Positions 40,454-41,909 of a stretch of 64,000 nucleotides of DNA are shown here, in pieces. A program made the translations under genes and the position numbers. The notes below the pieces were generated by a model, which ran no database searches, was not told the DNA's origin, and saw only the letters and a list, made by a program, of their open reading frames with translations. Each line of letters starts with the position of its first letter. The first letter of the stretch is position 1. The stretch comes from Escherichia phage vB_EcoM_SP1, in the sequence record MT682709.1, one strand, 5' to 3'.

Positions 40454-40461
40454 TATAAATA
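40454..40461 (+). promoter_or_regulatory. late promoter TATAAATA
   Basis: exact octamer directly after gene 31 stop. Confidence 0.45.
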
Positions 40462-40600: not shown

Positions 40601-40849
40601 ATGATTAAACAATTACAACACGCTCTTGAACTGCAACGAAACGCATGGAATAATGGTCACGAAAACTATGGCGCATCTATTGATGTTGAAGCCGAAGCTC
40701 TTGAAATCCTGCGTTATTTCAAACATCTGAATCCTGCTCAAACTGCATTAGCTGCTGAGCTTCAGGAAAAAGATGAACTTAAATATGCTAAGCCTCTGGC
40801 TTCTGCTGCACGAAAAGCAGTTCGTCACTTTGTGGTAACACTGAAGTAA
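40601..40849 (+). CDS. rIII: lysis inhibition accessory protein rIII
   Basis: 82 aa as T4 RIII; position between 31 and the 30.x cluster. Confidence 0.85.
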   Translation: MIKQLQHALELQRNAWNNGHENYGASIDVEAEALEILRYFKHLNPAQTALAAELQEKDELKYAKPLASAARKAVRHFVVTLK

Positions 40850-41247
40850 TTTACTGGAGATTCACTGCCTTAGTGTGAGCTAAAATCGAGGAGCCGTCGA
40901 ACTGTCTGATTAATGATTTGCGAATCATTATAGTTTTAAGACCCCGGCAGTTTTACGGTGTACCTCTTGAATGTTATTCTTATAGCGGCAAGTGCATGCT
41001 ACCCCGAGGTGATGGCCAATCGGGAGTACGCCTCAAGGCCTATATATCCATCAGTATATATCTTATCCTCGAGAAATCGAACCCGGAACCTTTAAGCTAA
41101 CGGTGTGCAACAGATAAGAGCTATAAGGTATGATGACGGGTTTATGGTTATCCTGGTCGTTAAATATCCAAAAACCTATGTTCCCCTTGAGGGCTTGCGC
41201 AGGCAATGCCAATAAGTCCTGCATTTTCATTTAAAAGAGAATTTATA

Positions 41248-41424
41248 ATGGCAAAACAAGCTAAAGCAAAGAAAGCAGTTGAAAAGAAAGTTGGTGATTC
41301 TAAACGCGCTGGCTACAAGCGTGGGTCGAACTCTCGTATCAATCAAACTGTTGAGAAGATCATGCGCCGAGCACGTGCGGTTCTTCGAGATGATGCTTCT
41401 CGTTTTGGTAAGCAGAAAGCATAA
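41248..41424 (+). CDS. small highly basic protein, 58 aa
   Basis: ORF from ATG 41248, Lys/Arg-rich; followed by strong terminator. Confidence 0.5.
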   Translation: MAKQAKAKKAVEKKVGDSKRAGYKRGSNSRINQTVEKIMRRARAVLRDDASRFGKQKA

Positions 41425-41428
41425 GTTG

Positions 41429-41455
41429 AGGACTCCTTCGGGAGTCCTTTTTTAT
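41429..41455 (+). terminator. rho-independent terminator
   Basis: GGACTCC-TTCG-GGAGTCC hairpin plus TTTTTTATTTT. Confidence 0.65.
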
Positions 41456-41477: not shown

Positions 41478-41510
41478 GTTTACAGTATGGTTCCTTTGTG
41501 ATAGTATTAT
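41478..41510 (+). promoter_or_regulatory. early promoter
   Basis: GTTTACA at 41478, TAGTAT/TATTAT -10; TTTGTG/CACAAA inverted repeat around -10. Confidence 0.45.
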
Positions 41511-41869: not shown

Positions 41870-41909
41870 GTTTACTTTGGTACAGGACATGATATTATAT
41901 ACCTGTACC
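41870..41909 (+). promoter_or_regulatory. early promoter with 8-bp inverted repeat bracketing the -10
   Basis: GTTTAC at 41870, TATTAT at 41893; arms GGTACAGG 41879-41886 and CCTGTACC 41902-41909. Confidence 0.5.

Follow-up and report, generated by a model that had tools for sequence, protein, structure and literature searches.

A conserved RNA core and neighbouring RNA modules between rIII and gp30.9 in T4-like phages

The gap between rIII and gp30.9

A window of 64,000 nucleotides from Escherichia phage vB_EcoM_SP1 (MT682709.1), a Tequatrovirus, was analysed. Between the stop codon of rIII (40849) and the ATG of a gp30.9 homologue (41248) lies a gap at 40850-41247. The gene order on the + strand is cd, 31.2, 31.1, gp31, rIII, the gap, the gp30.9 homologue, a terminator and gp30.8. 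The upstream neighbour of the gap, rIII (40601..40849, + strand), encodes the lysis inhibition accessory protein and matches PHROG 1457 (E = 4.7e-44). This region is 100% identical to that of phage vB_EcoM_FJ1 and 99.9% identical to that of slur03.

The original prediction, made from sequence alone, was of a non-coding island of about 400 nt after rIII, and this held. Stop codons are present in every frame of the gap. The longest open reading frame encodes 60 aa from a TTG start (40918-41100), the minus strand contains one of 55 aa, and none of the five open reading frames in the gap matched Pfam or PHROGs. A higher GC content had also been claimed. This is correct with respect to the whole window (42.5% vs. 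35.9%, which places the gap within the top 4.4% of 398-nt windows), but the GC content of the two flanking genes is 0.40–0.44, so that the contrast with them is only modest. The energy of the single-sequence fold of the whole gap is unremarkable (z = -1.46), so that the evidence for structure, which is very strong, comes from comparing phages.

In many GenBank records a “hypothetical protein” coding sequence has been laid over the non-coding core described below (window 40850-41424). In several, gp30.9 is named “1,4-alpha-glucan branching enzyme, GH-13-type”, and UniProt holds a 97-aa “11.1 kDa protein” that reaches into the spacer. The spurious-looking coding sequences, the branching-enzyme label and the UniProt entry are probably all annotation artefacts.

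The gp30.9 homologue (41248..41424, + strand; PHROG 1427) is a basic protein of 58 aa with no match in Pfam or the PDB. Its AlphaFold model (pLDDT 67) has a disordered N-terminus and one helix (residues 29–53); the model, a single helix of low confidence, was not taken into a fold search. The identical protein is found in T4, which has no core. Of the six other phages compared, five have a protein identity of 82–97% and Cronus one of 49%. At the nucleotide level gp30.9 is about 89% identical to its counterparts in Klebsiella and Kosakonia phages, and it is unusually well conserved for the region. It is rich in Lys and Arg and appears to be a nucleic-acid-binding protein. An obligate particle formed by the RNA and gp30.9 was considered and is unsupported, given the identical gp30.9 of core-less T4.

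A scan of the gap for promoters and terminators found no sigma-70-like promoter, and the only terminator is a strong one directly after gp30.9 (41428-41449, + strand). A late-promoter-like box, TATAAATA, lies upstream of rIII (40454-40461). The RNA island is thus probably co-transcribed with rIII; its transcription, processing and stability are inferred, since there are no expression data. Two sites resembling T4-early-type promoters, at 41479-41507 (TTTACA-17-TAGTAT) and 41871-41898 (TTTACT-16-TATTAT), directly follow the gp30.9 terminator and gp30.8, respectively. It appears likely that the small downstream genes each own an early promoter, and that the RNA island has none.

The original prediction had offered a structured non-coding RNA as one reading of the gap, and this is strongly supported. 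On the + strand the gap is composed of a small hairpin (E), a long hairpin (A2), a 149-nt core, an H-type pseudoknot (B) and two further hairpins (C and D), and covariation was found in every part of it. The corresponding stretch of the early region, 245–420 nt in length, is made up entirely of conserved RNA folds.

Structure and distribution of the core RNA

The core occupies 40979..41127 on the + strand (149 nt) and was defined with RNAalifold, with MAFFT and model-made alignments, and with a covariance model. Its seven helices, the closing stem included, come from RNAalifold applied to 23 sequences and from a subsequent extension by that stem. This stem, P0, has 8 bp (40979-86/41120-27). 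P1 (40987-89/41038-40) enters the long hairpin P2 (40998-41010/41015-41031) via a conserved internal loop, AAGKGCAU/CUNANG. P3 (41041-47/41054-60) is a simple hairpin whose loop retains a CAU/AAU motif. P4 (41061-67/41113-19) bears P5 (41069-72/41077-80), a hairpin with a GNRA loop that is not universal, and P6 (41081-85/41101-06). In the P6 loop the two ends, GAMCC and GCUAA, are conserved and the linker between them is variable; in EcS1 a hairpin is inserted in this linker. The single strand GCAACA (41107-12) forms J6/4. Helices P0, P1, P3 and P4 abut with zero unpaired bases between them, forming a perfect four-way junction of a closing stem and three arms. An early by-eye pseudoknot in P2, GAGGYG/CGCCUC, was dropped when covariation favored the nested helix (C15-G46/U16-A44), and a sequence in the P2 loop resembling a Shine-Dalgarno element, GAGGUGAU, is not conserved between genera.

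When 26 distinct sequences are aligned with MAFFT, 95.0% of the cells in paired columns can pair, compared to 28–43% when the partners are slid, and compensatory changes are seen in 26 of the 47 pairs, a value reached by none of 500 shuffles. A covariance model was then built and used to add the homologues of Yersinia phage fHe-Yen9-01, Pseudotevenvirus GAP161, Slopekvirus mtp5 and Yersinia phage JC221. The resulting model-made alignment of 30 distinct sequences has 96.0% of cells paired, compared to 28–42% with slid partners, and has compensatory changes in 37 of 47 pairs and at least one in every helix; again none of 500 shuffles reached 37. P1 and P6 were nearly invariant before, and the divergent members supply the changes: C-G to U-A in P1, and G-C to A-U, C-G to U-A and A-U to U-A in P6. 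An alignment made by the model is biased to the model's own structure; the MAFFT alignment gives the same picture. The core thus meets the generic criterion for a conserved structured RNA, compensatory pairs well above shuffled and slid controls. The covariance model matches 40975-41132 with 188 bits, and this is the sole copy in the window.

The pairs of the core include 76 G-U cells and only nine A-C cells. This excess shows that the RNA is the + strand, the strand of rIII and gp30.9, and it points to selection on one RNA strand and not on the DNA. It also ruled out a minus-strand RNA, which one apparent G-U stem had suggested. All six frames are stopped in each of the 26 core homologues examined, and the homologues vary in length (155–167 nt) by differences that are not multiples of three. 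The core is about 95% identical to those of Klebsiella and Kosakonia phages, compared to 72–76% for rIII and 67–77% for gp31, and is more conserved than the neighbouring genes. Nearly all of its invariant bases lie in two arms, in the P1/P2 internal loop (AAGKGCAU/CUNANG) and in the P6 loop with J6/4 (ACCCGGAMCC...GCUAACGGUGUGCAACAG). The AAGKGCAU and GCUAACGGUGUGCAAC regions could conceivably form a ligand pocket, but no ligand data exist.

Two checks proposed with the original prediction were an Rfam covariance-model search and a comparative alignment with T-even relatives. The alignment yielded compensatory base changes in the core, A2 and B. The search matched no family: with Rfam 15 there was nothing at the gathering thresholds in the whole window, and nothing at E ≤ 10 in 40750-41350, riboswitch and ribozyme models included. 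Among eight homologous loci Rfam gave 11 weak matches, none overlapping the core. ARAGORN detected neither tRNA nor tmRNA genes anywhere in the window of 64 kb, and the core, with arms of 3+13, 7 and 7 bp and no T-loop, is not a tRNA cloverleaf. Strings of the core sequence were found in no paper of the literature searched. The main text of a survey of viral RNA motifs (PMC10690425) mentions no Tevenvirinae, Straboviridae, T4-like phages or Tequatrovirus; a listing in its supplement is not excluded. The core, which matches no Rfam family, is regarded as a previously undescribed RNA family, to which no biochemical function can be assigned.

All true homologues of the core are in Straboviridae of Enterobacterales hosts, at one copy per genome and always in the sense orientation. 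About 990 phage records have this spacer, and only about 410, some 40% of the sequenced relatives, contain its central part. Between rIII and 30.9 the core is found in some Tequatrovirus, in Mosigvirus-like JS10, Citrobacter phages Moon and Merlin, the Klebsiella phages of ~167 kb, Karamvirus, Kanagawavirus, Kagamiyamavirus, Roskildevirus, Serratia phage PS2 and Yersinia phage fHe-Yen9-01. In IMG/VR it is present in 13 of 25 loci encoding gp30.9. No core outside such phages turned up in motif scans that covered IMG/VR, metagenomes and 185,579 genomes of bacteria and archaea, and blastn against 5,426 E. coli genomes gave no match. A host origin was rejected; the 18-mer matches, which came from genomes of bacteria and from metagenome contigs other than those of phages, lack the other motifs and are attributable to chance.

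Tequatrovirus itself holds four alleles at this site. The core is present in the window studied here. It is absent from T4, whose spacer of 245 nt lacks exactly the unit bounded by P0 (window ~40977-41130). In wV7 (L187 ~430-480) an unrelated insert of ~45 nt, TACTATCATGCGTCAGAAAAGTGTTATCTGTGTAAGTCTTGGTG, occupies the exact site of the core, as it also does in Mosigvirus HX01 (L221) and Gaprivervirus VR7 (L222). In Shigella phage CT01 (L188 654-780) a deletion from module E/A into the middle of P3 has removed the 5′ half of the core, and what remains carries a point change in the otherwise invariant GUGUGCAAC. The CT01 truncation may be a natural loss-of-function allele, a suggestion without phenotype data. 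The boundary between A2 and B thus serves as a cassette site, for which three or more states exist. Relative to modules B and C, the core is placed differently from genus to genus, and this, together with the allelic variation within Tequatrovirus, marks the core as a discrete, dispensable cassette. Since T4 lacks it and the copy in CT01 is truncated, the core must be dispensable in the laboratory, and any function it has must be conditional.

A second locus is used in some 20 records of the Pseudotevenvirus/Slopekvirus type (GAP161, mtp5, phiEap-3 and Yersinia JC221), in which the core follows uvsY/uvsY.-2. Here it faces the convergent genes uvsW.1 and uvsW, and no gene lies downstream on its own strand. 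No second-locus phage is among 60 of the 1005 records that match gp30.9, which is only weak evidence for the autonomy of the core. The second-locus cores form a divergent subfamily (L140 9218-9381; L220 2514-2679; L022 693-857). In JC221 a late-promoter-like sequence, CATAAATA, is situated just upstream of the closing stem of the core.

Modules on either side of the core

Module E (also A1; 40856..40881, + strand) is a small hairpin, GGAGATTCACTGCCTTAGTGTGAGCT, recognized by eye from the alignments. Other genera have related sequences (GGTGAYWYGCTACCWWAGTGCRAAG) on the one side of the core or the other (L002, L013, L204, L022). It may be another shuffled piece of RNA, with the reservation that its covariation was judged by eye only.

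Of the two hairpins singled out in the original prediction, the first, TAATGATT-TGCG-AATCATTA, is present at 40911-40930, one base away from where it had been placed. It proved to be the tip of the longer, irregular hairpin A2 (40888..40966, + strand), which has compensatory changes in related phages. The structure of A2 was derived from the window sequence itself. Its base, GAGGAGCC.../...GGTGTACCTC, is invariant across five genera. Its 25 pairs are 97.3% paired, compared to 27–61% for slid controls, and six of them show compensatory changes among five sequences.

Module B (41128..41180, + strand) is an H-type pseudoknot with stems S1 (UG-NN/NN-CG) and S2 (GGUU.../...AACC), a conserved 5′ flank, GUAUGAUG, and a conserved A-rich third loop, GUUAAAUA. 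The 13 pairs are 81.7% paired among 11 sequences, compared to 32–58% for slid controls, and seven of them are compensatory. By helix, pairing is 97.7% in S1 and 74.5% in S2, with compensatory changes in two of four and five of nine pairs, respectively. Both helices are thus supported by covariation, which satisfies the criterion for an H-type pseudoknot.

Module C (41180..41197, + strand) is a small hairpin with conserved flanks, GU(A/U)-CCC-NNNN-GGG-CUUG. In every genus it is found close to the core, also where the core is at the second (uvsY) locus, and T4 has it too. Compensatory variants, identified by eye, are CCUCU/AGAGG in PS2 and GCCU/AGGC in Cronus. That it might be a dispersed repeat was rejected, since it is unique in the window.

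The second hairpin of the original prediction, GCAGG-N14-CCTGC, held exactly at 41199-41222 and constitutes module D (+ strand). A U-rich run comes after it, and the ribosome-binding region of gp30.9 is close by on the downstream side. The base pairs are conserved, and the tip ranges from 14 to ~50 nt between genera. The terminator scan did not call module D, because its loop is too long. In Klebsiella and Serratia phages the tip is ~50 nt and has three loops of the GAAA/GGAA type (CCGAAAG, GUCGAAAGAAG and CUCGGAAG; Roth21, L002 ~1650-1720); this expanded tip could be a further structured domain.

The 245-nt spacer of T4 (L001 1201-1444) retains hairpin A2, pseudoknot B and hairpins C and D. 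In none of the T4-like records whose spacer annotation was examined are these four annotated as RNA. Modules B–D are present in every phage with gp30.9, T4 included.

Interpretation of the core and its neighbours

It is very likely that the gap is a functional structured RNA on the + strand. The core is a conserved + strand fold under very strong purifying selection, and with respect to its neighbours it is autonomous, optional and movable. How it acts can only be inferred. The preferred reading is that the core acts autonomously by binding a partner, and not as a leader; no partner has been identified, and taken by itself this proposal is still slightly more apt to be wrong than right. When the strengths of these two claims are blended, the explanation as a whole comes out slightly above even. 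The autonomous core is ranked above a leader, a ribozyme or a passive barrier because it occurs with nothing downstream, because the intervening elements are reordered between genera, and because gp30.9 is identical in T4, which has no core.

According to this proposal, the core would be made within the polycistronic transcript of rIII, or elsewhere of uvsY, and would fold independently behind its closing stem P0. The junction would hold the two conserved arms next to each other, and together they would form a single recognition or active site, the partner of which may be a protein, a small molecule or another RNA. The side-by-side docking of the arms is an architectural inference and no more than a possibility: the bases concerned are invariant and thus beyond the covariation test. 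The core would then provide an optional, host-dependent accessory function, for example in host takeover or counter-defence, and would exert no cis control over gp30.9.

Modules B, C and D are better candidates for a translational or attenuation leader of gp30.9, since they are present wherever gp30.9 is present. That they form such a leader is likely, the regulatory role being inferred. An H-type pseudoknot in the 5′ region of an mRNA that encodes a small protein of the nucleic-acid-binding kind is a classic autogenous translational operator, as in T4 gene 32 and in the leaders of ribosomal proteins. By analogy, modules B–D may perhaps be an autogenous operator resembling the gene 32 pseudoknot. 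The likeness concerns module B only, a covariation-supported H-type pseudoknot upstream of gp30.9. In contrast to gene 32, module B is 70–250 nt from the start codon, with the core between them in some genera, and binding by gp30.9 is only hypothesized. The original prediction had also suggested a long regulated leader for the downstream basic protein. This remains plausible for the 3′ modules B–D alone; it does not fit the central core, because the core is optional and, in other phages, stands at the end of an operon with no downstream gene.

One alternative for the core is a cis-acting leader, riboswitch-like or protein-binding, in which binding would refold B–D and control the translation of gp30.9 or read-through into it. 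In its favor, in most genera the core and gp30.9 share a transcript, with the core on the 5′ side, a hairpin with a U-rich run and a ribosome-binding region open to sequestration lie downstream, and a closing stem and junction with conserved loops is an architecture typical of aptamers. Against it, no gene follows on the core's strand at the second locus, gp30.9 is identical in T4 without the core, and the riboswitch families give no match at E ≤ 10. In Tequatrovirus module B stands between the core and gp30.9, in Klebsiella phages it does not, and C is sometimes found upstream. Since the elements between the core and gp30.9 differ between genera, there is no conserved expression platform. Membership among riboswitches or leaders requires a consistent upstream position and a coupled expression platform, and the core does not meet this criterion. 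The leader is therefore considered unlikely as an account of the core, although a cis role remains possible in the majority of genera, in which the core does lie upstream of gp30.9.

A new self-cleaving or processing ribozyme, which would separate rIII from gp30.9 or free itself from the transcript, is also improbable. What would suit such an RNA is a compact fold organized by a junction, in which two of the arms hold many invariant bases, together with independence of context (intercistronic or at an operon end) and the extreme conservation of unpaired regions. However, no Rfam ribozyme model matches at E ≤ 10, its ~150 nt exceeds most self-cleaving classes, it is always a single sense copy per genome, and cleavage data are lacking.

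Nor is it probable that the structures are passive, and merely stabilise or segment the messages of rIII and gp30.9 (or uvsY) by blocking ribonucleases or by signalling for RNase E/III processing. An intercistronic or 3′-of-operon position, AU-rich single-stranded flanks around P0 and stacked stable helices are in accord with this. A barrier, however, needs stable stems and does not call for some 60 invariant bases, unpaired or at the junction, that are kept 95% identical from genus to genus.

The original prediction had allowed for a decayed mobile element or homing-endonuclease remnant, and this is unsupported: there is no protein-family signal in any open reading frame, and strong purifying selection acts on nearly every base. 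In the wider form of this reading, a decaying remnant or a DNA-level site (an origin or recombination site) without RNA function, the variable presence of the core within one genus, its change of position between genera and the one truncated copy are points in favor. Compensatory changes in 37 pairs, the 76:9 excess of G-U over A-C and a core that outlasts its neighbouring genes in conservation speak against it, and covariation and strand asymmetry largely refute it; it is very unlikely. That the gap encodes one or more small proteins, as the 60-aa open reading frame and the “hypothetical protein” features over the region in many records might suggest, is all but excluded by stops in every frame of every homologue, indels that are not multiples of three and the absence of any family match.

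Among known RNAs, three groups invite comparison with the core. The rnaC and rnaD RNAs of T4 (species 1 and 2) have no known function, are dispensable in the laboratory and are co-transcribed with their neighbours. Like the core, they are small (119–139 nt) structured RNAs of T-even phages, but they belong to the tRNA cluster and their 3′ ends resemble those of tRNAs, whereas the core follows rIII or uvsY and its elaborated arms extend from a four-way junction. Homology was rejected: with filters off, the core model gave at best 5.9 bits (E = 4.1) in T4 68000-75000, at a site off both rnaC and rnaD.

The ROOL, GOLLD and raiA-type motifs are RNAs whose biochemical role is unknown or has only recently been glimpsed (bioRxiv 10.1101/2024.12.08.627333). 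They share with the core a definition by covariation, many conserved unpaired bases, frequent occurrence in phages or prophages and the lack of a fixed downstream gene. The core differs in being much smaller (~150 nt), confined to Straboviridae of Enterobacterales and not beside tRNA genes, and in having no Rfam match.

In the hairpin and twister-sister ribozymes, and in the Mn2+ yybP-ykoY and NiCo riboswitches, a four-way junction sets two arms with conserved internal loops side by side. The core can be drawn in this way as well; its conserved loops are nevertheless different, no model matches at E ≤ 10, and neither catalysis nor a ligand has been shown.

The T-even phages are the most thoroughly annotated of all phages, and yet this spacer has been annotated as nothing or as spurious hypothetical proteins, gene calls that can now be corrected. 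The spacer is regarded as an array of RNA modules that had gone unrecognized in this group of model phages. In a bolder reading, which is no more than possible, the core would represent a new functional class of phage RNAs, an optional cassette of T4-like phages of Enterobacterales that acts either as a new ribozyme or as a decoy or sponge for a defence protein of the host or for a nucleotide used in immune signalling. If that were true, it would have escaped notice for decades because T4 lost the core or never had one. For RNA biologists the core is a well-defined new motif with tractable genetics and natural alleles of presence, absence and truncation; for phage biologists it is a candidate RNA-level accessory function.
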